A stretch of DNA of 64,000 nucleotides from Escherichia coli O127:H6 str. E2348/69 (GTDB lineage: Bacteria; Pseudomonadota; Gammaproteobacteria; Enterobacterales; Enterobacteriaceae): the NCBI RefSeq assembly GCF_000026545.1, contig NC_011601.1. One strand, 5' to 3'. Positions 1,282 through 38,372 of this stretch are shown here, piece after piece (position 1 is the stretch's first letter; every line of letters begins with the position of its first letter). Position numbers and translations under genes: made by a program. The notes beneath the pieces are model-generated. The model saw only the letters and a list, made by a program, of their open reading frames with translations, had not been told where the DNA came from and did not search any database.

Positions 1282-1300
1282 TTGTACCCAAGACTGTACC
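1282..1300. repeat. attL core, direct repeat TTGTACCCAAGACTGTACC
   Basis: It is identical to 12406-12424. An inverted copy of its left half (TGGGTACAAA, 1325-1334) lies just before the int start. Confidence 0.85.
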
Positions 1301-1360
1301 TTTAATAATTTATCCAATTCATTTTGGGTACAAAATGATAGTCAATATTCAGGTGAAACT

Positions 1361-2620
1361 ATGGCAAAGCTGACAGATATCCAAATCAAGTCATGGATTA
1401 AGGCAGGAGAACGCTTCGAGGGGCGCTCTGACGGCAACGGGCTATACCTTCGCTATCGAGTGGGGGATAAAGTGCCTGTATGGCGTTTTCGATATCAGTT
1501 CGCTGGGAAATCACGGGTAATGCTTATTGGATCTTATAGCGAAATATCCCTTTCCAAAGCACGGGAAATAGCCAAGGAATTATCCGCACGTGTAGCCCTG
1601 GGCTTCGATGTCGCCGGGGAAAAGAAAGCGCGAAAAGCGGCTGCTATAGAAAAGATGGAGCGGGAGAAAAACGCGCTTCGCGTGTCAGAGCTAGCAACCG
1701 AGTATTTCGAACGGCAGATTTTGGGACGCTGGAAACATCCCGATCTTCTGCGCCGGAGAATCGATAAGGATATCAACCCACATATTGGCAACATGAAGAT
1801 AGAGGACGTAAAACCCCGTCATATTGATGCGATGCTACAGAGCGTTGTTGATCGTGGCGCTCCAACCGTAGCTAATGACGTTCTGCGCTGGACTAAACGC
1901 ATATTCGATTATGCTATCAAGCGTCATGCACTGGAATTAAACCCAGCTGGAGCATTTGATCTGTCAGACGCTGGCGGGCAGGAAAGTAGCCGTATGCGCT
2001 GGCTGACCCGTGAAGAACTTATACGTTTTTTCCAAGCTATGCGCACTGCAAAAGGATTCAGCCGCGAGAACGAGCTGACCATGAAGCTAATCCTCTGCCT
2101 GTGTTGTCGCAAAATGGAGCTGTGCGGTGCTCAGTGGGATGAATTCGACCTTGATGAAGCAGTGTGGCATCTACCAGCAGAACGCGTTAAAAACGGCGAC
2201 GCTATTGATATACCACTACCTCCACCTGCGGTTGGTTGGTTGAGAGAGCTTCGCACTATCGCGGGCAGTGGGAGTAAATGGGTTCTCCCCGCGCGGAAGA
2301 TGCAACACCGCATGATTCCCCACATTCAGGAAAGCACACTCCCAGTGGCGCTGGCAAAAGTACGCCGCGAAATGCCAGAAGTACCAAACTTCACAATTCA
2401 CGATTTCAGGCGTACCGCCCGCACCCATTTAGCGGCGTTGGGTGTCGATCCCGTAGTCGCAGAACGTTGCCTGAATCACCGCATTAAAGGCGTTGAGGGT
2501 ATCTACAACCGCCACCAGTACTTTGAAGAACGACGGGCAGCCCTGGAACTGTGGGCGGGGCTTCTGGTTTCGCTTGAACGAGGGGAAAACTACAATGTTA
2601 TTCCTTTATCTAAAATATAA
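1361..2620 (+). CDS. int: Tyrosine recombinase, P4-type integrase (N-terminal DUF4102-like arm-binding domain plus catalytic domain), 419 aa
   Basis: MAKLTDIQIKSWIKAGERFEGRSDGNGLYLRYRVGDKVPVWRFRYQFAGKSRVMLIGSY is the typical P4/CP4-57 integrase N-terminus. The C-terminal part has HDFRRTARTHL and a terminal ...GIYNRH... tyrosine region. An AGGTGA SD lies 5 nt upstream of the ATG at 1361. Confidence 0.9.
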   Translation: MAKLTDIQIKSWIKAGERFEGRSDGNGLYLRYRVGDKVPVWRFRYQFAGKSRVMLIGSYSEISLSKAREIAKELSARVALGFDVAGEKKARKAAAIEKMEREKNALRVSELATEYFERQILGRWKHPDLLRRRIDKDINPHIGNMKIEDVKPRHIDAMLQSVVDRGAPTVANDVLRWTKRIFDYAIKRHALELNPAGAFDLSDAGGQESSRMRWLTREELIRFFQAMRTAKGFSRENELTMKLILCLCCRKMELCGAQWDEFDLDEAVWHLPAERVKNGDAIDIPLPPPAVGWLRELRTIAGSGSKWVLPARKMQHRMIPHIQESTLPVALAKVRREMPEVPNFTIHDFRRTARTHLAALGVDPVVAERCLNHRIKGVEGIYNRHQYFEERRAALELWAGLLVSLERGENYNVIPLSKI

Positions 2621-2636
2621 AAGTTTTGTTTGAAGG

Positions 2637-2739
2637 TATTCACCCTATTCACCTTTTTAATTAACTTCATGATTTTAAATAATAAAAAAGGGTGAATACT
2701 TACAGTAAAACTAATCACCTTAGTATTCACCTGTTCACC
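2637..2739. repeat. Iteron cluster (ori-like): six copies of T(A/G)TTCACC around an AT-rich spacer
   Basis: TATTCACC is at 2637, 2646 and 2724. TGTTCACC is at 2732. Degenerate TAATCACC is at 2712. Inverted GGTGAATA is at 2691. The 2654-2690 spacer is almost pure A/T. TGTTCACC is the type I iteron I recall being bound by P4 alpha protein at ori and crr. Confidence 0.65.
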
Positions 2740-2939
2740 TTCTAAAGCTGCTGTGGCTGCTCCCCTTGCCCGAAAACACGCCAGCCACCAGCGTTAAAAA
2801 AAACTACAAAAATCATCATCGTACAGATCTGTACGATGACGCCAGCACTCACCCTACAAAACAACCTAACTTATTGATTTCAAAAGTAGAGAAAATCTGC
2901 TTTATGCCACTAGCTCGCACCCGTCCCCAAAAAGAAAAA

Positions 2940-2966
2940 GCCCGCGCTGGAGACGCACGGGCTTTT
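2940..2966. terminator. Bidirectional hairpin terminator between the int/iteron region and the cargo operon
   Basis: GCCCGCG-N9-CACGGGC is flanked by A-rich sequence upstream and TTTT downstream, so a T-run follows the hairpin on both strands. Confidence 0.5.
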
Positions 2967-3123
2967 GGGTACCGATAACCATGTTTGGAATCAACTCATT
3001 GAGTTCTGACCTCAATTTGCATGTTATCACAAGAAAAACACATTGTAATAATTGCAACAACGAATATCATCATTGCATATAATGAAACATAAATATCCGA
3101 TAGAACATACTGAGGTCTGACCG

Positions 3124-3675
3124 ATGCAAGATATTACAAACATCGCAGTGACTGGCGAAGATGGCGTGGTGACGTATGCCGACGGCAGTAAAGAGGAGTT
3201 CCAGTGCAGCGGAACCGTTGCGACCATCATTGCAAGTCTTGCAACGACACTCGAGAAAGAACGCAAAATGCGCATCGCCACCGGCGACCGCCTGCGCCGC
3301 ATGTACACCCGCGACAGTGATATGATTTCCCGCGGTTTGAATGGCACGTCTGCTACTTCCACGGCACCGACAGCAATGAATGCTGAGTTCATGCGTCTGG
3401 TACGTGCCGTAGCGCCGAAATACGATTCAGCACTGCCCGACGCCGACCCGCGCATCGTTGCGCTCGATGTGCTGCGCTACGCCCCTGCTGAGGCGTTCAG
3501 CGCCGTACACCCTACCCCAATGTCAGAAATCCAGCTGGATCAGGCTATCGATATACTCGAGCAGGTTGGCGACTACATGAAAGCAAACAATATCGCTCCG
3601 AAAATAATTTCTACAGGAGACGCAATCCGCAGCATCAATGCTGACAACGCCACCTTCTGGGGCAAAAAACACTAA
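3124..3675 (+). CDS. Hypothetical protein, 183 aa (cargo operon 1, gene 1)
   Basis: A GAGG SD lies about 9 nt upstream of the ATG. I recognise no family. The C-terminal motif INADNATFW is shared with the next ORF. Confidence 0.65.
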   Translation: MQDITNIAVTGEDGVVTYADGSKEEFQCSGTVATIIASLATTLEKERKMRIATGDRLRRMYTRDSDMISRGLNGTSATSTAPTAMNAEFMRLVRAVAPKYDSALPDADPRIVALDVLRYAPAEAFSAVHPTPMSEIQLDQAIDILEQVGDYMKANNIAPKIISTGDAIRSINADNATFWGKKH

Positions 3676-3688
3676 AGAGATATGAAGC

Positions 3689-3877
3689 ATGTCTATCTAT
3701 GACCCGAAATTAGCCGCAGGCAACCCACAGCGCGCCCACCGCCCAATGCTGACCCGTCAGGATCTTGAAACGGCAAAGGCACGCAATAACTTCGATCGCC
3801 AGAGTCGCAACCTGCAGCAACTCAACGAATCAAATGCACGGTTCTGGAGTGAACAGAATGAGAAAGCCAAACGTTAA
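3689..3877 (+). CDS. Hypothetical small protein, 62 aa (cargo operon 1, gene 2)
   Basis: It starts 13 nt after gene 1. It carries LNESNARFW, similar to the gene 1 C-terminus. Its 3' end overlaps the gene 3 start by 20 nt. Confidence 0.5.
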   Translation: MSIYDPKLAAGNPQRAHRPMLTRQDLETAKARNNFDRQSRNLQQLNESNARFWSEQNEKAKR

Positions 3878-4034
3878 GCCGGTCCTGCTGTCCGCCGAGC
3901 AGATGCAGGCCATACGCAACATTCAGGAACGTGAACGCCAGCGCTCCAATCTCGGCGTCGCTCCCACCGTTCACCAGATTGCCCGCGGCCTCATGGCTAA
4001 GGCTCTGGCCTCACTGGCAAGCGAGGGCGCGTAA
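3858..4034 (+). CDS. Small putative ribbon-helix-helix-like protein, 58 aa (cargo operon 1, gene 3)
   Basis: The ATG at 3858 has a GGAG SD 8 nt upstream, within the longer track ORF 3765-4034. MRKPNVKPVLLSAEQMQAIRNIQERERQR...TVHQIARGLMAKALASL has a strand-helix-helix pattern. The stop overlaps the next start as TAATG. Confidence 0.5.
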   Translation: MRKPNVKPVLLSAEQMQAIRNIQERERQRSNLGVAPTVHQIARGLMAKALASLASEGA

Positions 4035-4765
4035 TGGGCGCCATTCACCAGATATATGAGCAGGAAATGTTCTATAACTGGATAGGCGATGGTAAACGAT
4101 GTGTAGCATTCCACGAAGCGGGCCATGCAGTAGCCGCATGGCTTATTCGCTTAGATATGCAGGTTATCGCCATTATGGATGAATCCGGCTACGTTGCTGG
4201 CGAACATGTACATGAAGCCCAGTGTTTGGGCGTTGTTAAACACGGCATAATCCACAGCCACGATCTCAGGCGTTTGCGGGAGAGTAAATCTGGTGTAGTT
4301 GGGCACGATGGCAAAGTTATCCCTTTCATACGCTACTACGCGGAAGGTATAAAGCGCGATGCAACAAAGGCCGCTTTTGTAGCCCTCGCTGGACCAGTAA
4401 GCGAAGCCATTTACGAAAATAACGAAATTTTCAATATAAAGTATTCACTCCCTCACCGCTATGACATGGCTAACGTAAATGACATGCTCGATTTAATATG
4501 TGCCACGGATAAGCGAATTAACAGGAAGTTAATGCTTTCTAAACTTGTTGAAAAGACCAAATTCCTCATGACTCAATACTGGCCGGAAGTAGGAAAAATA
4601 GCGCATTTGCTTGAGCGGGATAACATTGTTAATGGCCGCGATGTTAGCTCGCTAATCGGCCTCAACGTCATTGACCGGGCAACGCCATTTTTGGTATCTG
4701 ACTTGAGCAGTACATTTGCTCATCTCCCGTACTCGTCCCTGCCTCCGAATGAATTAGCAACTTGA
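4034..4765 (+). CDS. Stand-alone FtsH-like (peptidase M41-type) zinc metalloprotease domain protein, 243 aa, with no AAA+ module and no TM segment
   Basis: FHEAGHAVAAW (HEAGH at nt 4112-4126) matches the FtsH zinc site. Later segments (VALAGPVSEAIY, MANVNDMLDLI, KIAHLLERDNIVNGRDVSSLI) parallel the FtsH protease domain by eye. There is no Walker A/B. Confidence 0.7.
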   Translation: MGAIHQIYEQEMFYNWIGDGKRCVAFHEAGHAVAAWLIRLDMQVIAIMDESGYVAGEHVHEAQCLGVVKHGIIHSHDLRRLRESKSGVVGHDGKVIPFIRYYAEGIKRDATKAAFVALAGPVSEAIYENNEIFNIKYSLPHRYDMANVNDMLDLICATDKRINRKLMLSKLVEKTKFLMTQYWPEVGKIAHLLERDNIVNGRDVSSLIGLNVIDRATPFLVSDLSSTFAHLPYSSLPPNELAT

Positions 4766-4777
4766 AGACAGTAAAGT

Positions 4778-4802
4778 AGCCATGCATTTAACACGCATGG
4801 CT
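4778..4802. terminator. Bidirectional hairpin between the two convergent cargo operons
   Basis: A perfect 8-bp stem AGCCATGC / GCATGGCT with a 9-nt loop lies in the 47-nt gap between the stops at 4765 and 4813. Confidence 0.55.
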
Positions 4803-4812
4803 ATGTGAACAT

Positions 4813-6036
4813 TTAAGAATTAGAGCGCTTAGGCGATCGCGTAAATTGCACTAAAGCCCCTTTATGATCGTTAGCCTGCACATCACGATGCTCAACCAAC
4901 ATAGATTTTAATTTTGCCAGATGCACAACAGCAGCCTTCTTGCCAGTCAGGTACCCCTCGGGCAAACCAGCAATCATTTCCACATCAATAGCAGATAAAC
5001 CTGCGAATGCAGCAAGCCGTTCAACTGAAATGATTCCAGACGATGCCAGCAATTCAATAGTACGTTTCAACAAACGTGGTTTTTCAGGCTCACGATAATC
5101 ATCTCCCGGCTCTGATTTCGCTCCCCAACGTGCTGAACGACGCTTATAAAGATTTTGTTTCTCTTCTTCCGTAATAATATGCAGCACATGTAAACGCATG
5201 ATACTTGCCGCAACGGAAATACCATAGCGTTGTTTAATTAAAAGCAAGCTATCTAATGTTACCGGGGTCCTAATTTCTTCGGCAAATGTCTCAGCAGGAA
5301 GCAGCAGTGCTCCCGCAAATTTATGAGCCTGACTTTCCTTCAGCTTATAACGTTCGGCTTCGAGTTCGTTGCCAACATAGCGGTGAAGGATCAGATGACC
5401 AATTTCGTGAGCAAGGTCAAATCTGCTACGAAAAGCATTACCTTTATCTGAAGAGAGGAGAACAAAAGGAACACCTAAAGTCTCACTCCAGGCAGAAAGC
5501 CCTTCAATCTGCGCAACGCCTGTTTCTTCTCTAATAACGATAATACCATTACTCTCTGCGGCTAAAGCAAGATCCGGTATTTCCTTTGTACCAAGATTCC
5601 AAAGAGCACGGCACTCATTAGCAGCGTCTTCAATATCTGCATCACTAATTTCATCAATGTTTGTAAAGCTACGACGCGGTAGTTTTAGCTCCGGCAGATC
5701 TACAAACTCAGTCAGCTTAGTAACTAACTCATTAGCCCAATGGATTCGAGTTTCTAACATTGCTCGTGCAGCTACATGAGCTGATGCATTGCTTCTGAAC
5801 AGAGGCTTTGACATCCCCTTCAACAGAGGGCGCGTAAACCATTCAGGTGTAACATTTACGACAGTGGCCAGACGTTCTAAAGCCTCAGACTCTGGAGCCT
5901 GTTGACCGGAACGCCATTTGCTAATGGTTGCTGGTGATACACCCACCATAGTAGCTAATTGAGTTTGTGATAGCCGCCGGGCGGCTAGTACCTGTGCTAA
6001 CCTGCCCGGTTGAAATTCGGCGACGCCTCGGCTCAT
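4813..6036 (-). CDS. XRE-family HTH fused to an ImmA/IrrE-type (M78, COG2856) zinc peptidase domain with a C-terminal extension, 407 aa
   Basis: The N-terminus LAQVLAARRLSQTQLATMVGVSPATISKWRSGQQAP is a classic XRE HTH. HEIGHLILH is at aa 210-218 (HEIGH at nt 5395-5409). The start overlaps the upstream gene stop as ATGA, with a GAGGAAG SD. Confidence 0.8.
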   Translation of the reverse strand: MSRGVAEFQPGRLAQVLAARRLSQTQLATMVGVSPATISKWRSGQQAPESEALERLATVVNVTPEWFTRPLLKGMSKPLFRSNASAHVAARAMLETRIHWANELVTKLTEFVDLPELKLPRRSFTNIDEISDADIEDAANECRALWNLGTKEIPDLALAAESNGIIVIREETGVAQIEGLSAWSETLGVPFVLLSSDKGNAFRSRFDLAHEIGHLILHRYVGNELEAERYKLKESQAHKFAGALLLPAETFAEEIRTPVTLDSLLLIKQRYGISVAASIMRLHVLHIITEEEKQNLYKRRSARWGAKSEPGDDYREPEKPRLLKRTIELLASSGIISVERLAAFAGLSAIDVEMIAGLPEGYLTGKKAAVVHLAKLKSMLVEHRDVQANDHKGALVQFTRSPKRSNS

Positions 6037-6680
6037 ACATTATCTTCCTCGGTTCCATCTTTTCTGATAATGCCCCTTTTGAGCCCAGGGAATGCATTAT
6101 CTTCTTGGGACGGAACTACATCATATCGGGTTAAAAAAAGTTCAAGTGGCTCATGAAAAACCCAGCGCTTCCCATCAGAACTTGGTACAACAAGCTCTAT
6201 AGACATCGGAGCTTCAGGCTGAATCTGCAACGAACCGGAAAAACGGCATACTACGAACAGTGTAGCTTTTGGCACATCAGAACCATCGGAGAATAAATCC
6301 GGTTGCACCATTTTTTCCACAAACACGTTCTCAGAAATGAGTTCTTGCTTACGTTTGCTACGGAATAATCTCTTCCACTGGTTATCATTGTAGCTTTCAC
6401 GAACAATCGTGAATATACCACTATGGCCTTCTACAATACGGTTACCACGCAGCTTTCCAGGATTACAACCGTTGGCCTCAAACACCTCATAAATAGTTTC
6501 ATTCAGGTTTAAATGACGATCATAACCAAGCGCGGTCGATCTGTGATCTAGCTTCTTCTTTTGAGCATAATCGTAAGAACGCTTTGATGCCGCGTAAATC
6601 GCGTCAGAAAGGGCCATGAAGAGTTGTTTTGAAACATTCTGAACGATGAGATCTGCCACTTTGGATTTTTTCACGACCAT
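6033..6680 (-). CDS. Hypothetical protein, 215 aa, first gene of cargo operon 2
   Basis: It is an intact ORF with an AGGA SD. It is translationally coupled (ATGA) to the XRE-ImmA gene. I recognise no family. Confidence 0.65.
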   Translation of the reverse strand: MVVKKSKVADLIVQNVSKQLFMALSDAIYAASKRSYDYAQKKKLDHRSTALGYDRHLNLNETIYEVFEANGCNPGKLRGNRIVEGHSGIFTIVRESYNDNQWKRLFRSKRKQELISENVFVEKMVQPDLFSDGSDVPKATLFVVCRFSGSLQIQPEAPMSIELVVPSSDGKRWVFHEPLELFLTRYDVVPSQEDNAFPGLKRGIIRKDGTEEDNV

Positions 6681-6683
6681 TTC

Positions 6684-6702
6684 CTATCACTGTCACTGAT
6701 AG
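6684..6702. promoter_or_regulatory. Operator-like inverted repeat CTATCA-N7-TGATAG at the start of cargo operon 2
   Basis: CTATCACTGTCACTGATAG lies 4 nt upstream of the 6680 start codon, overlaps the SD, and contains an internal tandem TCACTG. Confidence 0.45.
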
Positions 6703-7209
6703 CCGTGATTTTATATCAGTATTTTTTCGTGTGTCCATAACGCAATCAATTATTTTTTCCTTTGTCAGCAAGAATTATATAAAAAGCACTATCATGACAG
6801 GATTTGGGCCACTAACCTTTCACAGACTCTTGAAGTCCTAGAAAAAAGCAATGGCACAAGGTGTCCTTGCCGGGAGAAAAATCATCTGGCTACCAGCAAC
6901 CTTATAGATTCCAGATCAACGTAATATCAAAGTAAAACGTCCATTTCCGGTACCATATTTGGTCATTACGACGGGGGAAACTTATACCCACTGCTGCCCC
7001 ATCGTCAGCGCCGACAGGGACCTATGCCGCAAGGTATAAGGCAAAATTGGCATTTTCGCTATTCCCCCTGCCCGTATTTTTTGGCTTACTGGAATTTCTC
7101 TATCTAACACAATGAACTTGAGGCTATTCCGACAGGGAGAAAAGCGATCTACGCCTGACCGCCTGCCTCAGCAATCATCCAGGCAAGTACGTGTGTAAGG
7201 CTAACGCGA

Positions 7210-7890
7210 ATGAGTGATTTTTATTCCCCTCTACCAAGCTATGATCTTGTCCGGGCAGCGGAGATGCTGACTGATAAGGGGGCAAATTGTACCGGTAACG
7301 ATTTATTGGAACTATGGAACCAAGGCGTTATCGAGTTGTGTTTTTCTCTGCCGGACTACATTGCTTGTGAAGATGTTAATTTTCCCGGGCATGGTCACAG
7401 CATTTTGTTATCCGTGGATCCGATTAGCTTCAACCTTTTCTGGCTAAATGTTGATTACCCACCGAACTTAAATGCTAACTTTTCTGTGAAAGAATATGGC
7501 TCAGATAGTGAATTCCATGAGCAGTCCCTATGGATACCAACAGAACCGCACTACAACACTCACCATGATAACGGGGAAGGGCTTTGCGAAGCGTTAAGGA
7601 ATACTTATGGCCGGGAAAATTTACGAATACCAGGTGTCGAATTGCAAAAGGTTTGGCGCTTTTTGATCGGTCAGCCTTATGAAAAAAAGCCAACGCCTGA
7701 GCGTATCACCGCTAAGCAATGCCGCTTTATCGTCGCATTACTCAGATCGTATAACCTGACTGACGATGATTTTAAGGGGAGCATTAGGGACCTGAGAATT
7801 AAGATATCTAACCGGATCCCTTCAATCGGTGATCCTGAAATCGATGATAATACCCTTACTGACTGGCTGAAGAAGGGAGGGGTTCGGTAG
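7210..7890 (+). CDS. Hypothetical protein, 226 aa, first gene of the rightward alpA operon
   Basis: It is an intact ORF after a 529-bp intergenic region. I recognise no family. Confidence 0.6.
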   Translation: MSDFYSPLPSYDLVRAAEMLTDKGANCTGNDLLELWNQGVIELCFSLPDYIACEDVNFPGHGHSILLSVDPISFNLFWLNVDYPPNLNANFSVKEYGSDSEFHEQSLWIPTEPHYNTHHDNGEGLCEALRNTYGRENLRIPGVELQKVWRFLIGQPYEKKPTPERITAKQCRFIVALLRSYNLTDDDFKGSIRDLRIKISNRIPSIGDPEIDDNTLTDWLKKGGVR

Positions 7891-7891
7891 C

Positions 7892-7928
7892 TGAGTTTTC
7901 ATAACTCCGATGAGTTTTCAATAACTCC
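7892..7928 (+). repeat. Tandem direct repeat TGAGTTTTCA(A)TAACTCC x2
   Basis: The copies are at 7892-7908 and 7911-7928 and differ by one extra A. They lie immediately after the 7890 stop. Confidence 0.7.
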
Positions 7929-7957
7929 CCCACCCGTAACCACCTACCCCGTAGCCT

Positions 7958-7993
7958 TGCGATTACCTTCTCACTCAATAGCAGGTAATCGCA
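7958..7993 (+). promoter_or_regulatory. Hairpin able to sequester the alpA SD and start codon
   Basis: There is a perfect 10-bp inverted repeat, TGCGATTACC (7958-7967) and GGTAATCGCA (7984-7993). The right arm contains the AGGTAA SD and the A of the ATG. Confidence 0.45.
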
Positions 7994-8205
7994 TGAAATC
8001 GCAAACTTTCACCTTTCCTACCAATGGCAACGCACGAGCCAAACAAGTGGCGCACTATCTTGGAGTGCATATCAGCACCGTATGGCGCTATGCAAAACGT
8101 CCTGATTTTCCAAAACCCCACCAGTTAACCGACGGCGTGACCGTCTTTGACGCCGCAGCTATTCGCCAATGGAACAAGCAAAAAACCGGGGGTGAGAATG
8201 CTTAA
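7993..8205 (+). CDS. alpA: AlpA-family (MerR-like HTH) phage/island regulatory protein, 70 aa
   Basis: RAKQVAHYLGVHISTVWRYAKRPDFPKPHQLTDGVTVFDAAAIRQWNKQK matches the AlpA/Vis-type pattern. Confidence 0.8.
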   Translation: MKSQTFTFPTNGNARAKQVAHYLGVHISTVWRYAKRPDFPKPHQLTDGVTVFDAAAIRQWNKQKTGGENA

Positions 8206-8259
8206 CGCGACCGTGAGCACACCCTGCACGACAGCCGTTCGATCTCCATTGTTGGCGGG

Positions 8260-8454
8260 TCAGGCTTTCGGCTCAATACCCAGCCGCTGGAGTTCTTTGC
8301 GCCCCAAGGTTTTCATCCAATTAGCTAAACTCATACCTGCATCTCGTGCGGCGGCCTCGAATTGCTCTTTCAATTCTGGGGCGATCCTCACTTGGAAAGC
8401 TGGTGCCTTTCCCCTGCCTTTGGGCTGTTTATCACGCTGTATTACTGTTGACAT
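8260..8454 (-). CDS. Ribbon-helix-helix (Arc/CopG-type) DNA-binding protein, 64 aa
   Basis: MSTVIQRDKQPKGRGKAPAFQVRIAPELKEQFEAAARDAGMSLANWMKTLGRKEL is a typical RHH signature. The start is chosen at the internal Met of track ORF 8260-8547. Confidence 0.65.
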   Translation of the reverse strand: MSTVIQRDKQPKGRGKAPAFQVRIAPELKEQFEAAARDAGMSLANWMKTLGRKELQRLGIEPKA

Positions 8455-8458
8455 GTAT

Positions 8459-8512
8459 GTACCTATTAAACTAAGATTCAAATCAATAGGTACGCACCTT
8501 AACATGTTAAGG
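8459..8512. promoter_or_regulatory. Divergent operator region: a 9-bp inverted repeat plus a 16-bp perfect palindrome
   Basis: GTACCTATT (8459-8467) pairs with AATAGGTAC (8485-8493). CCTTAACATGTTAAGG is at 8497-8512. Both lie between the RHH gene start (8454) and the rightward operon start (8589). Confidence 0.5.
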
Positions 8513-8588
8513 TCAGAAAAGACAACGCCCCGTAGTGCTCGCAACACATACGGGGCGTCTAACCAACAACGTTACGGAGACTAACGCT

Positions 8589-8789
8589 ATGGCTAAGCCG
8601 CAGTGTACCCAAACTCACCCCAAATATCAGTATCGTTTTATGGCGCTCGATCGCGCTGACCGCCAGGCAAAACCCTGCAAAATCATTGTTGAGGCCACCA
8701 GCGAGCATGAAGCACGTAAGGTGTTGGCACCTCACTACATCCTGTCACTGTCCGCCGTTTTGCCAGTTCAGGAGGTGAGCCATGTTTAA
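8589..8789 (+). CDS. Small protein, 66 aa, possibly Icd-like (host cell division inhibitor-like)
   Basis: The ATG has a GGAGA SD 8 nt upstream. MAKPQCTQTHPKYQYRFMALDRADRQAKPCKIIVEATSEHEARKVL resembles my memory of Icd-like proteins found upstream of primases in P4-like islands. This is unverified. Confidence 0.45.
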   Translation: MAKPQCTQTHPKYQYRFMALDRADRQAKPCKIIVEATSEHEARKVLAPHYILSLSAVLPVQEVSHV

Positions 8790-8976
8790 TGTCATTGTCA
8801 CGGTCACCTATCACTTTTCGGGAACGATCCGTCGTTTTGCTATTCCGGAACGTTTCAATAATCGTGAGCTCGCAGAGAAAGCGGCGCAGCAGTTAACCCA
8901 TACCAGCTATCTGGATGATGGAGTGAGCAGAATTGTGACCCACGCGGCGGAAGTAGTGGAGGTGCGCCATGTATGA
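8782..8976 (+). CDS. Hypothetical small protein, 64 aa
   Basis: Its start overlaps the previous stop by 8 nt (translational coupling). I recognise no family. Confidence 0.5.
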   Translation: MFNVIVTVTYHFSGTIRRFAIPERFNNRELAEKAAQQLTHTSYLDDGVSRIVTHAAEVVEVRHV

Positions 8977-9157
8977 CGCCTACCTGAACCCAAAGGACGC
9001 ACTCCGTCCGATCGCCGTTGCACTCGAGGCTGCGCAGTTTATCGCGCTTGACCCGGAGAATACCGATTTAGCCCATGAGCTGATCGCCTGGGCACTTGAA
9101 ACAGCCGCGCGTGCCTCAGCTGCGCAACGTAACACCCCGGAGGTGGACAATGCTTAA
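8969..9157 (+). CDS. Hypothetical small protein, 62 aa
   Basis: Its start overlaps the previous stop by 8 nt. I recognise no family. Confidence 0.5.
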   Translation: MYDAYLNPKDALRPIAVALEAAQFIALDPENTDLAHELIAWALETAARASAAQRNTPEVDNA

Positions 9158-9458
9158 TCTCAATACATGGAATCTTTTCACGCTGCCGCTGAACGGTGGC
9201 GCAGCTGAGACAGCGCCGGACGATCTGCGTCTGCTGGCCGCTGTGGGGGACGAGGCTCGCAACAACTACCTGCGCGGTGTAAGCGCCATCGGCAATCTGA
9301 TCTTCTGGGCATGTGATAACCCCAACTACACCGACCATCAAGCTGACCTGCCAGCGCTGGGCGCATTCCTGAAACATACCGCTGATATGGCGCGCGCTGC
9401 CGAATTCATGGCAGGACATCTGGACTCACTGGCTGACGGCAAAGAGGGAGGCAAATAA
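9150..9458 (+). CDS. Hypothetical protein, 102 aa
   Basis: The internal ATG at 9150 has a GGAGG SD and overlaps the previous stop (ATGCTTAA). I recognise no family. Confidence 0.5.
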   Translation: MLNLNTWNLFTLPLNGGAAETAPDDLRLLAAVGDEARNNYLRGVSAIGNLIFWACDNPNYTDHQADLPALGAFLKHTADMARAAEFMAGHLDSLADGKEGGK

Positions 9459-9679
9459 TGCCACGCAAACATCGCTCATCAAGCAACCTGATCAAATTAA
9501 TGGAACGCCAGAAAGGTATAGGGCGCGACGATATCCAGATCGCAGATAATCGCCCTACATTCATGCCGTACGAGCCGAACGGAACCTACGCTACAAACCG
9601 CCATACCCGCCGTATGCTACGCAAGCTCCACGGCATCCAGGCAAAAAGAATGTGTGATCTGAAAGGAGGTCAGAAATGA
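9458..9679 (+). CDS. Hypothetical basic small protein, 73 aa
   Basis: It overlaps the previous gene as TAATG, and its stop overlaps the primase start as ATGA. Confidence 0.5.
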   Translation: MPRKHRSSSNLIKLMERQKGIGRDDIQIADNRPTFMPYEPNGTYATNRHTRRMLRKLHGIQAKRMCDLKGGQK

Positions 9680-12090
9680 GTGGATTCGATCACCTGATGG
9701 AGCAGGGGCAGAAACGCACCCCTGCTCGTTTTACTGCAAATAGCTTTTCTGACCTGTGCAACGCTATTCTATCGCATCGTGTGCAAATTTCCATCACACA
9801 GGAAATGACGGATGAAGAACGGCGCAAAGAAAAGCAGAAACTGTACTGGTTCTCGGCAACTACCCAGCAGGACGGGCAGCGACGTAAACCCGAAAACATG
9901 GCACCGTGTGCTTTCGGTATGCTGGACATTGACGGCAGCACTCCCGGTGCAATCACAGCACTTGTACAGGTGTTCCGGCGATACTCAATGCTGGTGTACC
10001 AGACGGCCAGCTATACGACGGATGAACCTCGTCTGCGTATTGTGTGCGAGCTTTCCCGAGCGGTTGAATCTGACTACCGCCGAGCGACAGGCGAATCCAT
10101 AGAAACTTTGTTGATGCAGGAGGCTGGATTCTCATTCGCCAGCCTGGCGGATAAGAAAGCACGCTGGGAGAACGGCAGCGATTATGTTGTCTTTGACCGC
10201 AATGTATACGGCGCTCAAAGCTATTGCTACTGTCCACACACTGGAGCGAAAGCCCAGAATTACGCGGGCGCGGTAATCGACGTAGGGGCGTTACCGGAAC
10301 CCGCCCAGCCACCAGCGAAGGCGGCCAAAAGCAAGGCAAAGAAACAGCGCCAGCGTGACGCCGCGGCGGTAATAGATGCTGATTTTGACGATCTGAGCGC
10401 CGGACCGGATAACTTCCTTATCGCCGACCTGCGCAGCGCACTCTGGTTTCCCTCCATGCTGCAAAAGGCATGGGACAATGGGGCGTGGATTGAGCAGGGC
10501 TACCGCCTTGCATCTCTCAAAGGCACCGATTTTGAGGACGACGCGCGGCAACTGTGGGTCGAGTGGTCATTGACCGCAGCGGATGGCTGGCCTGATGAAG
10601 AACTTGATGAAGTCGCGGCACAACGCTGGAATGGTCTCGCCCCTGACAAAACCAGCTATAAAGCTATTTTTACTGATGCTCAGGCGCAGGGGTGGAATAA
10701 TCCGGGCAAATGGCGAGCAAAGGCCGCGTACATTGAGAAAATGGCCCCCAGCACACGCGGTGAACTGCTGGCGCAATATTACGGCAACGTATGCCTGAAA
10801 GCTGATGGCAACATGGTTTATCACTATACCGGGCAGGTGTGGGAGCACATCGCCGATGCCGAGTTGCGCCGCCAGCTTTCGCAGATTTTCAAAGATAACG
10901 GGGTCCCCTTTACACCGTACGAGGTTAAAAGCGCGATTGAGGCTATGGGAATGCTTCTGCCTTTAATGGGAGAAACTCCTCGTAACCTGATTGGCTTTGC
11001 CAACGGCGTTTATGATCTCGAGGCGCAGCGATTCCGCCCCCACTGCCCAGACGATTGGCTGACCAGCCATAACGGCGTTGAATACACGCAGCCGGTTAAA
11101 GGCGAAACCCTGAAAAACAATGCCCCAAACTTCTGGCGCTGGCTGCATCATTCCGCAGGGGGCGACTTCGACAAAATGGAGAGAATCAAAGCCGCTCTGT
11201 ATATGGTGCTGGCAAACCGCTACGACTGGCAACTGTTCATCGAGGTTACCGGTGCTGGTGGCAGTGGTAAAAGCGTGTTCACGGGTATTGCACGTATGCT
11301 GACGGGCGAACTACACGCCACCAGCGGCACAATGGAGGACATGGACACCGCGCGCGAACGCGCATCTTTTGTCGGCAAAAGCCTGATCACCCTACCCGAC
11401 CAAGCAACATATACGGGTTCCGGGCCGGGTATCAAGGCTATAACGGGCGGCGACGTGGTAAGGATCGACCCAAAGCACGAAAAGCCATTCCATACGGTTA
11501 TTCGCGCCGTTGTCATCGCAACAAACAACGAACCTATGCGTTTCACCGAACGACAAGGCGGGATATCGCGGCGCCGGGTTATTTTCCCGTTTAACCATGA
11601 AGTGCCGGAGGCGGAACGTGATCCCCATCTGCTCGATAAAATTAAAGCCGAACTGCCGGTAATCGTCCGTGGTCTGCTGATTGACTTCGAACAGCCAGGC
11701 AAAGCCAAATCGCTACTTATCGCGCAGCGTGATTCAGCGGAAGCGCTGCAGGTGAAGAACGATAACGACCCGATGTATGGCTTTTGCTCTTACCTGCTAG
11801 GTTTGCCGAATCCCGAGGGCATGTACATGGGCGATGGGCGCATGGCGCGAGAGCCACGCATCTACCTCTATCATGCTTATCTGGCCTATCTGGAAGCCTA
11901 CGGTTATCAGAGAACCCCCACCCTACCGAAGTTCAGCGGAGATTTACGGGACACGCTCAAAGCCTTTGGTATTACTCTGGACAGTAAAAAGAGTAAAAAG
12001 GGCAAAAGATATAACGTCAATTTGTCTGACAGGGCACAAGAATGGCTGGGAGAAGACGAACTCTCAGCTGTGCCCGACACATTGCAGTAA
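9676..12090 (+). CDS. P4 alpha-like replication protein: N-terminal primase-like domain, PriCT-2-like region, D5_N/SF3 helicase P-loop, 804 aa
   Basis: Walker A GAGGSGKS is at nt 11251-11274. The surrounding ...ANRYDWQLFIEVTGAGGSGKSVF...IKAITGGDVVRIDPKHEKPF...ATNNEPMRF...GGISRRRVIFPF matches the phage/plasmid primase P4-family C-terminal domain. A candidate DxD (LDIDG) is at nt 9925-9933. Confidence 0.85.
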   Translation: MSGFDHLMEQGQKRTPARFTANSFSDLCNAILSHRVQISITQEMTDEERRKEKQKLYWFSATTQQDGQRRKPENMAPCAFGMLDIDGSTPGAITALVQVFRRYSMLVYQTASYTTDEPRLRIVCELSRAVESDYRRATGESIETLLMQEAGFSFASLADKKARWENGSDYVVFDRNVYGAQSYCYCPHTGAKAQNYAGAVIDVGALPEPAQPPAKAAKSKAKKQRQRDAAAVIDADFDDLSAGPDNFLIADLRSALWFPSMLQKAWDNGAWIEQGYRLASLKGTDFEDDARQLWVEWSLTAADGWPDEELDEVAAQRWNGLAPDKTSYKAIFTDAQAQGWNNPGKWRAKAAYIEKMAPSTRGELLAQYYGNVCLKADGNMVYHYTGQVWEHIADAELRRQLSQIFKDNGVPFTPYEVKSAIEAMGMLLPLMGETPRNLIGFANGVYDLEAQRFRPHCPDDWLTSHNGVEYTQPVKGETLKNNAPNFWRWLHHSAGGDFDKMERIKAALYMVLANRYDWQLFIEVTGAGGSGKSVFTGIARMLTGELHATSGTMEDMDTARERASFVGKSLITLPDQATYTGSGPGIKAITGGDVVRIDPKHEKPFHTVIRAVVIATNNEPMRFTERQGGISRRRVIFPFNHEVPEAERDPHLLDKIKAELPVIVRGLLIDFEQPGKAKSLLIAQRDSAEALQVKNDNDPMYGFCSYLLGLPNPEGMYMGDGRMAREPRIYLYHAYLAYLEAYGYQRTPTLPKFSGDLRDTLKAFGITLDSKKSKKGKRYNVNLSDRAQEWLGEDELSAVPDTLQ

Positions 12091-12109
12091 CTTGTAAAAA
12101 ATCACCAAG

Positions 12110-12131
12110 AACCCCGTAAATCGGGGTTTTT
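12110..12131 (+). terminator. Rho-independent terminator after the primase gene
   Basis: AACCCCG-TAAAT-CGGGGTT is followed by a T-run, 20 nt after the stop. Confidence 0.75.
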
Positions 12132-12152
12132 GTCTATTTATTAGTCTGAAAG

Positions 12153-12254
12153 GGTGAACAGGTGCGCATACCTTAACAAAGCTGTTCACTCTAATAATTT
12201 TCTTTAATATCAGTACACTACCCGCAATAAGTGAACAGATGGACGGGGTGAACA
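12153..12254. repeat. Second iteron cluster (crr-like): four copies of GGTGAACA / TGTTCAC
   Basis: GGTGAACA is at 12153-12160 and 12247-12254. TGTTCACT is at 12183-12190. AGTGAACA is at 12230-12237. An AT-rich spacer lies between them. It is the same octamer family as 2637-2739. Confidence 0.6.
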
Positions 12255-12405
12255 CTTCACACCTATAGCGCGAAATATTTTAATATTTGCAGTTGAATTG
12301 CAATCCTTGAAAACAGAAACGCGTAGCAAAACGTAGAGTGCTGAAAAAATTTTGTTGGGGAGCAGTTCAAACTGCATGAGCAATTTTCAAGCACTCCTCT
12401 TTGTC

Positions 12406-12424
12406 TTGTACCCAAGACTGTACC
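12406..12424. repeat. attR core, direct repeat TTGTACCCAAGACTGTACC
   Basis: It is identical to 1282-1300. Confidence 0.85.
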
Positions 12425-38277: not shown

Positions 38278-38372
38278 GGAAGATCGTCGTCTCCGGTGAG
38301 GCGGCTGGACTTCAAATCCAGTTGGGGCCGCCAGCGGTCCCGGGCAGGTTCGACTCCTGTGATCTTCCGCCA
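38278..38372 (+). tRNA. selC: tRNA-Sec (anticodon UCA), 95 nt
   Basis: GGAAGATCGTCGTCTCCGGTGAGGCGGCTGGACTTCAAATCCAGTTGGGGCCGCCAGCGGTCCCGGGCAGGTTCGACTCCTGTGATCTTCCGCCA has a long variable arm, a TCA anticodon and a CCA end. Confidence 0.97.

Follow-up and report, generated by a model that had tools for sequence, protein, structure and literature searches.

To our knowledge, M41 proteases have been described almost exclusively in membrane-bound AAA+ machines, of which they form the C-terminal half. Protease-based abortive infection is exemplified by Lit of prophage e14, a stand-alone HEXXH zinc metalloprotease encoded by a single gene on a mobile element, and the ImmA/IrrE (M78) protease-repressor pairs, which include CapP/CapH and RmrA, couple a small regulator gene to a metalloprotease. 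Phage-inducible chromosomal islands (PICIs) carry immune systems in three regions, at the 5′ end, at the 3′ end and downstream of pri (He et al. 2024, PMC11364771), and a hotspot of the P4 satellite lies between psu and int (Rousset et al. 2022). Here we describe a four-gene operon, genes A to D, at positions 3124-4765 of a 64,000-nucleotide stretch (the window) that is 100% identical to the chromosome of Escherichia coli E2348/69 (enteropathogenic E. coli, O127:H6). Gene D is predicted to encode a soluble, stand-alone M41 (FtsH-type) zinc metalloprotease domain with intact active-site residues and without an unfoldase, and the cassette that contains it is a self-contained, horizontally mobile accessory cargo of PICI-type satellites. 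Loci compared with the window are given L numbers below.

As a single sequence, D is barely recognisable as an M41 protein. The Pfam M41 model matches residues 21-44 only, with 20.6 bits against a gathering score of 29.9, and the NCBIfam model of FtsH proper (TIGR01241) gives 15.5 bits against a cut-off of 600; when A, B, C and D were searched singly against Pfam, NCBIfam, PHROGs and PADLOC, the sub-threshold M41/FtsH match on the HEXXH helix of D was the sole match. An exhaustive profile search with D recovered 283 cluster representatives, nearly all of them 150-250 aa in length, which constitute a family of stand-alone M41 domains. PF01434 is matched by 73 of the 84 aligned homologues, and the 84-member profile aligns with FtsH protease domains in the PDB (E=4.5e-20), collinearly over the HEXXH region and the C-terminal helices. 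A model of D built from a shallow alignment of 19 sequences was unusable (predicted local distance difference test, pLDDT, 40.5), and we used the AlphaFold model built from the 84-sequence alignment (pLDDT 80.7; predicted template-modelling score, pTM, 0.80). With this model, the top Foldseek matches in the PDB were all FtsH, AFG3L2, YME1 or FtsHi chains, which assigns the model to the M41 fold, and the best viral match was a stand-alone M41 protein of 214 aa encoded by an uncultured phage. The profile search against FtsH, the Foldseek comparison and the PF01434 matches therefore agree with a first-pass annotation of this DNA, made by eye, which had proposed that the last gene of the operon encodes a free-standing FtsH-like protease.

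The same annotation had described the protein as having neither an AAA+ ATPase nor a membrane anchor, and both statements are borne out: Pfam matches no AAA+ domain in D, whose HEXXH motif is already reached at residue 27 of 243, and none of A, B, C or D contains a transmembrane-like segment (the maximum Kyte-Doolittle mean over 19 residues is 1.29). Residues 26-36 of D read FHEAGHAVAAW, in which H27-E28-A-G-H31 forms the HEXXH zinc-binding/catalytic motif. H27 is invariant in a 19-sequence alignment of the clade, and H27, E28 and H31 are each present in at least 90% of 84 stand-alone homologues, as is D144, whose column in the profile-to-FtsH alignment coincides with the Asp of 'GAENDFRQAT' in T. 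thermophilus FtsH. In FtsH structures, the Asp of that segment, in the helical subdomain, is the third zinc ligand. Judged by these residues, D is apparently an active protease.

D differs from FtsH, YME1 and AFG3L2 not only in the lack of an AAA+ ATPase, a transmembrane anchor and a periplasmic domain, but also in its location on a mobile element beside small partner genes, in its scores, which as a single sequence stay below the Pfam and NCBIfam cut-offs, and in an insertion of ~50 residues (residues 49-100) that follows the HEXXH helix and lies beside the active-site sheet. The insertion is specific to the enterobacterial clade and, together with the partners A, B and C (and a fifth gene, E, described below), sets that clade apart from uncharacterised stand-alone M41 proteins of phages and mobile elements such as A0A6J5RJ76 (UniProt; uncultured phage) and 5iqj (PDB; Vibrio cholerae). 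Close relatives of D already bear the name 'peptidase M41 family protein' at NCBI. A scan of genome contigs for D was dominated by the HEAGHA of genuine FtsH genes and produced only 5 weak loci.

The four plus-strand open reading frames (ORFs) coincide with four coding sequences in the RefSeq annotation of E2348/69: A (183 aa, 3124-3675), B (62 aa, 3689-3877), C (58 aa, 3858-4034) and D (243 aa, containing the M41 protease domain, 4034-4765). A and B are separated by 13 nt (3676-3688), B and C overlap by 20 nt (3858-3877), and the stop codon of C and the start codon of D overlap in TAATG, such that C is translationally coupled to D. A ribosome-binding site of the GGAG/GAGG type precedes every start codon by 8-13 nt. 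Sizes, gap and overlaps are thus as first described, and the spacing and overlaps support the proposal of a tightly coupled four-gene operon. In comparisons with diverged copies (synonymous divergence, dS, 0.2-2.8), the pairwise ratio of nonsynonymous to synonymous divergence (dN/dS) is 0.07-0.10 for A, 0.24-0.25 for B, 0.04-0.14 for C and 0.22-0.28 for D, and from these values we conclude that A-D are genuine genes under selection. Within the operon, a 10-nt direct repeat, TTCACCAGAT, occurs in C (3970-3979) and in D (4044-4053) in the same codon phase, encoding (V/I)HQI; a deletion between the two copies would fuse C to D in frame.

Upstream of gene A, a terminator scan identified a G+C-rich hairpin, AAAAGCCCGCGCTGGAGACGCACGGGCTTTT, at 2936-2966, with a 12-pair stem and with A- and T-runs at its flanks. 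This hairpin, stronger and conserved, had gone unmentioned in the first-pass annotation. It is kept 5′ of gene A in every copy of the cassette that was examined, among them seven whose upstream neighbours differ (int, perC, primase), and in EC02-type copies homology begins at window position 2935. Because the hairpin is conserved whatever gene lies upstream, it marks the 5′ edge of the mobile cassette, where it is a terminator-like insulator. The palindrome AACTCA-T-TGAGTT, to which attention had originally been drawn, is indeed present at 2993-3005, but its value as an operator did not survive: the window contains 28 inverted repeats of the 6-N1-6 type against ~16 expected, the palindrome is kept in near-identical copies only, and on both grounds it was rejected as an operator and is probably not significant. 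A consensus scan of the plus strand found two overlapping sigma-70-like promoter matches (TTATCA-17-AATAAT with TG; TTGTAA-16-TATCAT) at 3024-3070. The number of such matches in this region does not exceed that in shuffled sequences, and the promoter is putative; TTGCA-type motifs of this stretch recur in diverged copies. Downstream of D, between the convergent stop codons of D and rmrA, the terminator scan found an inverted repeat at 4777-4803, and the stem of the bidirectional hairpin that had been proposed here is real, with 11 base pairs. Its T-runs are only weak, and it is a possible bidirectional terminator.

In the profile searches, the products of the three upstream genes matched no described family. 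Gene A, whose product is soluble, has 41 homologues across Enterobacterales, in which a variable N-terminal half is followed by a strongly conserved C-terminal half (EFMRLVRAV...DPR.VALDVLRYAP...QVGDYMKANN). No profile of Pfam, NCBIfam, PHROGs, PADLOC or the PDB matches it. Homologues of A bear the label 'XRE family transcriptional regulator' at NCBI, but this looks unsupported: no helix-turn-helix (HTH) or XRE model of Pfam or NCBIfam matches at E<=0.1. Gene B encodes a basic protein (net charge +5), and its homologues, 51-97% identical, adjoin A in L003, L004, L013, L014 and L017. The C-termini of A and B share an N-x-x-N-A-x-F-W motif, INADNATFW in A (3640-3675) and LNESNARFW in B (3824-3850), which is also found in diverged copies and could be a common binding or recognition element. 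Gene C, likewise basic with a net charge of +5, has 27 homologues and begins with an invariant, strand-like VKPVL motif that is followed, by eye, by two helix-like stretches.

The first-pass annotation had called C ribbon-helix-helix-like and its overlap with the start of the protease gene an antitoxin-like arrangement, and the corresponding explanation is that C is the DNA-binding antitoxin of a type II toxin-antitoxin pair in which D is toxic, the pair stabilising the island while A and B are unrelated passengers. The arrangement has some appeal: a small basic protein is coupled through TAATG to a larger enzyme, C and D have co-diverged more tightly than A and B, the C+D pair alone is found in ~32 E. 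coli genomes, and among distant stand-alone M41 genes one is directly preceded by a Pfam Antitox_RHH protein while others have a small upstream gene that overlaps them by 4 nt. Profile comparisons do not support this reading, however. By eye, the sequence of C is compatible with a ribbon-helix-helix, yet no such family was among the Pfam matches of 18 homologues (C and 17 others), NCBIfam gave no match, and the profiles of gene C and of gene A produced only chance matches among PDB sequences. Against the Antitox_RHH partner of the distant M41 gene, hhalign assigned C a probability of 0.4%, and a hidden Markov model of C found none of the small genes upstream of the distant M41 loci, which are moreover not homologous to one another, one of them being AlpA/HTH-like. 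Nor is the pairing obligate. D occurs without C in L006 (Dickeya), L015, L016, L019, L008 and L021-L023, and because some of these lineages (Dickeya, L015/L016/L019 and the more distant clade found after the gene for a single-stranded DNA-binding protein, SSB) keep an intact HEAGH in D, C is not an obligate neutraliser of the protease. In the Dickeya protease (L006 8001-8717), the N-terminal extension KVKPVFLGS looks like what is left of C after an in-frame fusion to D. We therefore regard the antitoxin explanation as improbable.

The distribution of the operon is that of cargo. DNA of gene D is present in 53 of 5426 complete E. coli genomes, 20 of which have the full operon, whereas ~32 match just the 3′ end of C together with D, at ~91% identity. 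In the single genome of the latter kind that was inspected, O6:H16 strain M9682-C1, a C-like gene and D follow the primase at the 3′ end of another island, integrated at the same yicC-dinD site. The full operon is int-proximal in yicC islands and stands at the 3′ end of a satellite that is integrated at tRNA-Gly and has a different primase, and in IMG/VR contigs from other Enterobacterales the cassette genes directly follow a DUF927/P4-family primase; in these copies, identity to the window genes is 51-98% for A, B and C and 43-79% for D. The gene sets seen are ABCD, A-B-D, CD, D alone and D+E, and since the genes around it vary, D is the constant element of the cassette. Relative to L013, dS is 0.21 for C and 0.31 for D but 2.8 for A and 1.2 for B; C and D co-diverge while A and B have other histories, indicating that the cassette is a mosaic. 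The E2348/69 backbone itself is present in 17 genomes, always with ABCD, a count that is uninformative on cargo status. That the operon is backbone of this island type was considered and rejected, as the cassette also occurs in other backbones. Its placement between int and the int-alpA RNA motif, together with the different positions of its near-identical or diverged copies in different satellites, upholds the original suggestion that it is variable cargo. Homologues of A and D were not found by tblastn in 50,697 isolated phage genomes, and the cassette is therefore not a standard set of phage structural or replication genes.

In E2348/69 the 3′ end of the cassette has been altered. In 13 E. 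coli genomes, megablast coverage ends at query position 1794, window position 4693. This point lies four codons short of where the protease, normally of 223 aa, would end, and the usual C-terminus (...ATPFLLAE) is replaced in E2348/69 by a 24-residue tail, yielding a protein of 243 aa. The megablast break, the protein alignment and the annotated neighbours in DEC5B and EC02 together define a recombination scar on the plus strand at 4693-4765. In those 13 genomes, in Dickeya and in L023, D is followed by gene E (L003 10882-11940; L004 10850-11902; L006 8795-9853), which encodes a 352-aa lipoprotein with an LTGC lipobox and a central coiled coil and matches nothing in Pfam or PADLOC. Thus the statement that the operon ends in the protease holds in E2348/69, whereas the natural order, in E. 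coli as in Dickeya, continues into E. Among the 5426 E. coli genomes E is confined to these 13 and always directly follows ABCD; in other genera it is usually in the same satellite as D, either adjacent (also beside the second D clade) or int-proximal with A-D after the primase, and the two genes co-occur in the same satellites even when they are 5-6 kb apart. Between 4693 and alpA, E2348/69 carries an exchanged segment, in which a different variant of the Rosmer system has taken the place of E and of one Rosmer variant, and the copy in the window is a 3′-truncated version of a fuller, five-gene cassette. Separately, shorter homologues of the N-terminal domain of E occur in prophage contigs (L046-L059) with no detectable D nearby.

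Such an exchange raises the question of whether the operon of E2348/69 is a decaying, no longer useful remnant of a five-gene ancestor that was interrupted when recombination introduced the Rosmer variant now in place. The break at 4693 inside D, the loss of E and the replaced C-terminal tail of D would all fit. All four ORFs are intact, however, and identical or near-identical in 7 genomes of the E2348/69 type, every residue that is at least 90% conserved in D, through T217-P218-F219, is retained, and C+D and ABCD exist without E elsewhere. Decay is on these grounds the least credible of the explanations considered here, and we hold it to be very unlikely.

A second protein follows D in other lineages. 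A gene for a secreted protein of 112-116 aa, with a signal peptide and a conserved Cys, overlaps the 3′ end of D by 4 nt in L008 (8603-8953), L021 (8606-8956), L022 (8603-8953) and L005 (3807-4145); the proteases of L008, L021 and L022 belong to the second clade, and that of L005 is 43% identical to D of the window. Since either this secreted protein or lipoprotein E comes next, D is often followed by an exported protein. Genes of phage morphogenesis also intrude into the cluster: in L017 a Neck1/tail-completion gene (phrog_222, E=1.2e-47) lies between C and D at 7307-7900, a second copy being located in the head-tail module of the same locus (11693-12247), and in L005 a gene that resembles Neck1 by eye lies between an A-like gene and D (2295-2927).

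These neighbours bear on the possibility that the protease and its partners form a module of the satellite life cycle, helping the satellite to exploit or sabotage its helper phage. ImmA, for instance, cleaves the repressor of ICEBs1, and D could possibly cleave a helper repressor, a regulator such as CII, or a morphogenetic protein, thereby redirecting assembly or packaging. In most satellites the cassette genes lie between the primase or SSB gene and TerS-like (DUF2280, phrog_57) packaging genes, and this post-primase region is the usual PICI location of hijacking genes. The slot after SSB is also taken by a second D clade, whose identity to D of the window is only 23-27%, distant D homologues come after AlpA-like or SSB-type early genes, and both the Neck1 genes within the cluster and the joint presence of D and E, even at a distance, are in keeping with a life-cycle role. 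On the other side, the cassette is patchy among related backbones (53 genomes have D, as opposed to 1126 with primase similarity of some degree), it moves between positions and backbones as a unit with its own hairpin, the gene set around D is inconstant, and no packaging or capsid gene is recognisable in the island of E2348/69 or in that of O55:H7, although both carry the cassette. Weighing both, we consider a life-cycle function unlikely, if less so than the antitoxin explanation.

The island that carries the operon lies between two identical 19-nt attachment (att) repeats, TTGTACCCAAGACTGTACC, in direct orientation at 1282-1300 and 12406-12424; repeats and annotation together give an integrative island of 11.1 kb (1282-12424) between yicC and dinD. 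The island query matched 4796 E. coli genomes, nearly all of them in the yicC-dinD flank alone, so that the site appears empty in most. The island encodes, in order, a P4-type tyrosine integrase (int, 1361-2620; Pfam Arm-DNA-bind_3, Phage_int_M and Phage_integrase domains), the four ORFs of the operon, a convergent two-gene unit, an int-alpA RNA motif, a 226-aa hypothetical protein, alpA, an icd-like gene, small ORFs and a D5/P4-family primase-helicase (9676-12090; Pfam D5_N, DUF5906 and Pox_D5 domains). Between int and alpA, just 5′ of the gene for the 226-aa protein (7210-7890), lies the int-alpA RNA motif (Rfam RF02996; 7117-7184, plus strand; 39.4 bits, gathering score 35.8), which forms the backbone-side limit of the variable cargo. 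At 8260-8547 on the minus strand, in the interval from alpA to the icd-like gene, an antisense ORF has a weak, sub-threshold match to the HicB family (E=0.0022; 18.3 bits against a cut-off of 21), and RefSeq annotates a shorter, 64-aa hypothetical coding sequence within it on the same strand.

The first-pass annotation had placed the operon in the hotspot of a P4-like element. The published P4-like definition (SatelliteFinder, PMC10085698) has seven components, among them the psu-delta-sid capsid-hijack operon. The island has the integrase, Phage_AlpA and alpha-type primase of that definition, and an icd-like gene too, but no Psu, Sid or Delta was found in it by RefSeq annotation or by a Pfam scan of the remaining island ORFs, and it therefore falls outside the seven-component definition. 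The same sources reveal no recognisable capsid-morphogenesis or small terminase gene 3′ of the primase in E2348/69; TerS-like genes are present in related satellites of other genera. The SatelliteFinder definition of PICIs includes a capsid-morphogenesis gene and a small terminase as well as the order int, alpA-type regulator, primase-replicase. The island does have this order, and by this layout it resembles a PICI-type satellite and does not match canonical P4. Because the published P4 hotspot is the psu-int interval, and an island without Psu, Sid and Delta has no such hotspot in the strict sense, 'P4 hotspot position' is an analogy only. Nor did PADLOC reveal any relationship to gop, beta and cII.

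Elsewhere in the window, tRNA-Sec (selC) lies on the plus strand at 38278-38372. We take selC to be the insertion site of the locus of enterocyte effacement (LEE) in E2348/69, in which case the LEE is probably also inside the window.

A known defence system does adjoin the operon. PADLOC identified a complete Rosmer system on the minus strand, comprising rmrA (4813-6036; E=3.5e-125, 416 bits), in which Pfam recognises HTH_3 and Peptidase_M78 domains, and rmrT (6033-6680; E=8.1e-16, 56.5 bits); rmrA is convergent with D, on the opposite strand and 48 bp away. A PADLOC check of 2900-6700, the interval originally proposed for it, was accordingly clear for A-D, which match none, but not for the interval as a whole, since it includes RmrT/RmrA at 4813-6680. 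The corresponding position of the O55:H7 DEC5B island (L003 12083-13924) holds another variant of Rosmer. We regard Rosmer as context and not as part of the operon: a functional link between the two was rejected, as Rosmer is absent beside the cassette in L002, L004 and L006, and Rosmer queries of L013-L023 were empty.

As to what the cassette does, our tentative preference, which we rate slightly below an even chance, is for a conflict module, anti-phage or helper-interfering, with the protease as effector and the small proteins as regulators, adaptors or sensors. We infer the defence function from location. The cassette occurs in all three PICI positions, next to int (5′), after the primase and at the 3′ end, and these are the positions in which int-alpA-primase satellites carry their accessory immune regions, such as those of the Tai systems (He et al. 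2024); the cassette proteins are unrelated to any of the immune systems tested. In the window, int borders the operon on one side and Rosmer and the int-alpA RNA on the other, and in O55:H7 a second Rosmer variant is its neighbour. Distant stand-alone M41 genes likewise sit in mobile or defence-like neighbourhoods: one follows an AlpA-like gene near BstA and DUF4145, another directly follows the Pfam Antitox_RHH gene near Imm_superinfect genes and IS110, and a third adjoins a phage ssDNA-binding gene.

The insulating hairpin, the promoter region and the four translationally coupled genes make up the cassette. Under the proposed mechanism, it would serve phage-bacterium-satellite conflict, most likely as anti-phage or helper-interference immunity. 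D would be the effector and, when infection lifts or redirects its control, would cleave a protein of the phage or of the host, in analogy to Lit of prophage e14. Since an M41 domain cannot unfold substrates by itself, its targets would be exposed or unstructured segments, unless it co-opts a host AAA+ machine. The small co-translated proteins, C and the A/B pair with its common NxxNAxFW, might act as regulators, adaptors or sensors of D. Compared with the precedents, D would share with Lit the logic of a latent protease that is triggered by infection, if the defence interpretation is right, but the families are unrelated (Lit is a Peptidase_U49, and the PADLOC Lit model does not match D). The coupling of a small gene to a metalloprotease recalls the ImmA/IrrE pairs, including CapP/CapH and RmrA, but D is an M41 and not an M78 protease, and no HTH or repressor is demonstrable among A, B and C.

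Several points weigh against this conflict-module interpretation. None of A-E matches a family of PADLOC-DB v2.0.0 at E<=0.1, gop-beta-cII, Lit and the PDC candidates included, and the module is not described in the searchable literature on M41 and defence, stand-alone FtsH-like proteins, PICIs or the P4 hotspot. Guilt by location is weak, because satellites also keep genes for helper exploitation downstream of pri, where PICIs typically have their hijacking genes. The Neck1/tail-completion gene inside the cluster in L005 and L017 could indicate a life-cycle role, as could lipoprotein E travelling with D across satellites. C is absent from the Dickeya and Klebsiella-type copies, the roles of C and of the A/B pair are ones that we purely infer, and the E2348/69 copy, being truncated, may be impaired. 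A more specific version of the conflict module strikes us as doubtful, namely that the cassette represents an undescribed class of phage-conflict system in which a free-standing M41 effector that has shed its unfoldase, with tiny co-translated controllers or targeters and, in the full form, an exported lipoprotein, shuttles among the three PICI immune hotspots and either docks on a host AAA+ machine or site-specifically cuts a phage regulatory or morphogenetic protein. We regard the module as satellite cargo with a proposed protease effector, a candidate rather than a demonstrated system; the family name of the protease is already in RefSeq.

D belongs to a family of soluble M41 proteins that lack an ATPase and number several hundred, on phages and satellites. 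For the 1.9-kb operon of the reference EPEC strain E2348/69, natural comparison alleles exist in the five-gene form of O55:H7, located in DEC5B at NZ_CP038389.1 162911-165900, and in the two-gene C+D form of ~32 E. coli genomes, one such allele being at NZ_CP024275.1 4008402-4009246. If the cassette does act in immunity or helper interference, the anti-phage repertoire would gain a new type of effector, there would be a handle on the substrates that a naked FtsH protease domain can cleave, and satellites would offer a worked case of a single cassette that moves among their 5′, post-primase and 3′ hotspots.

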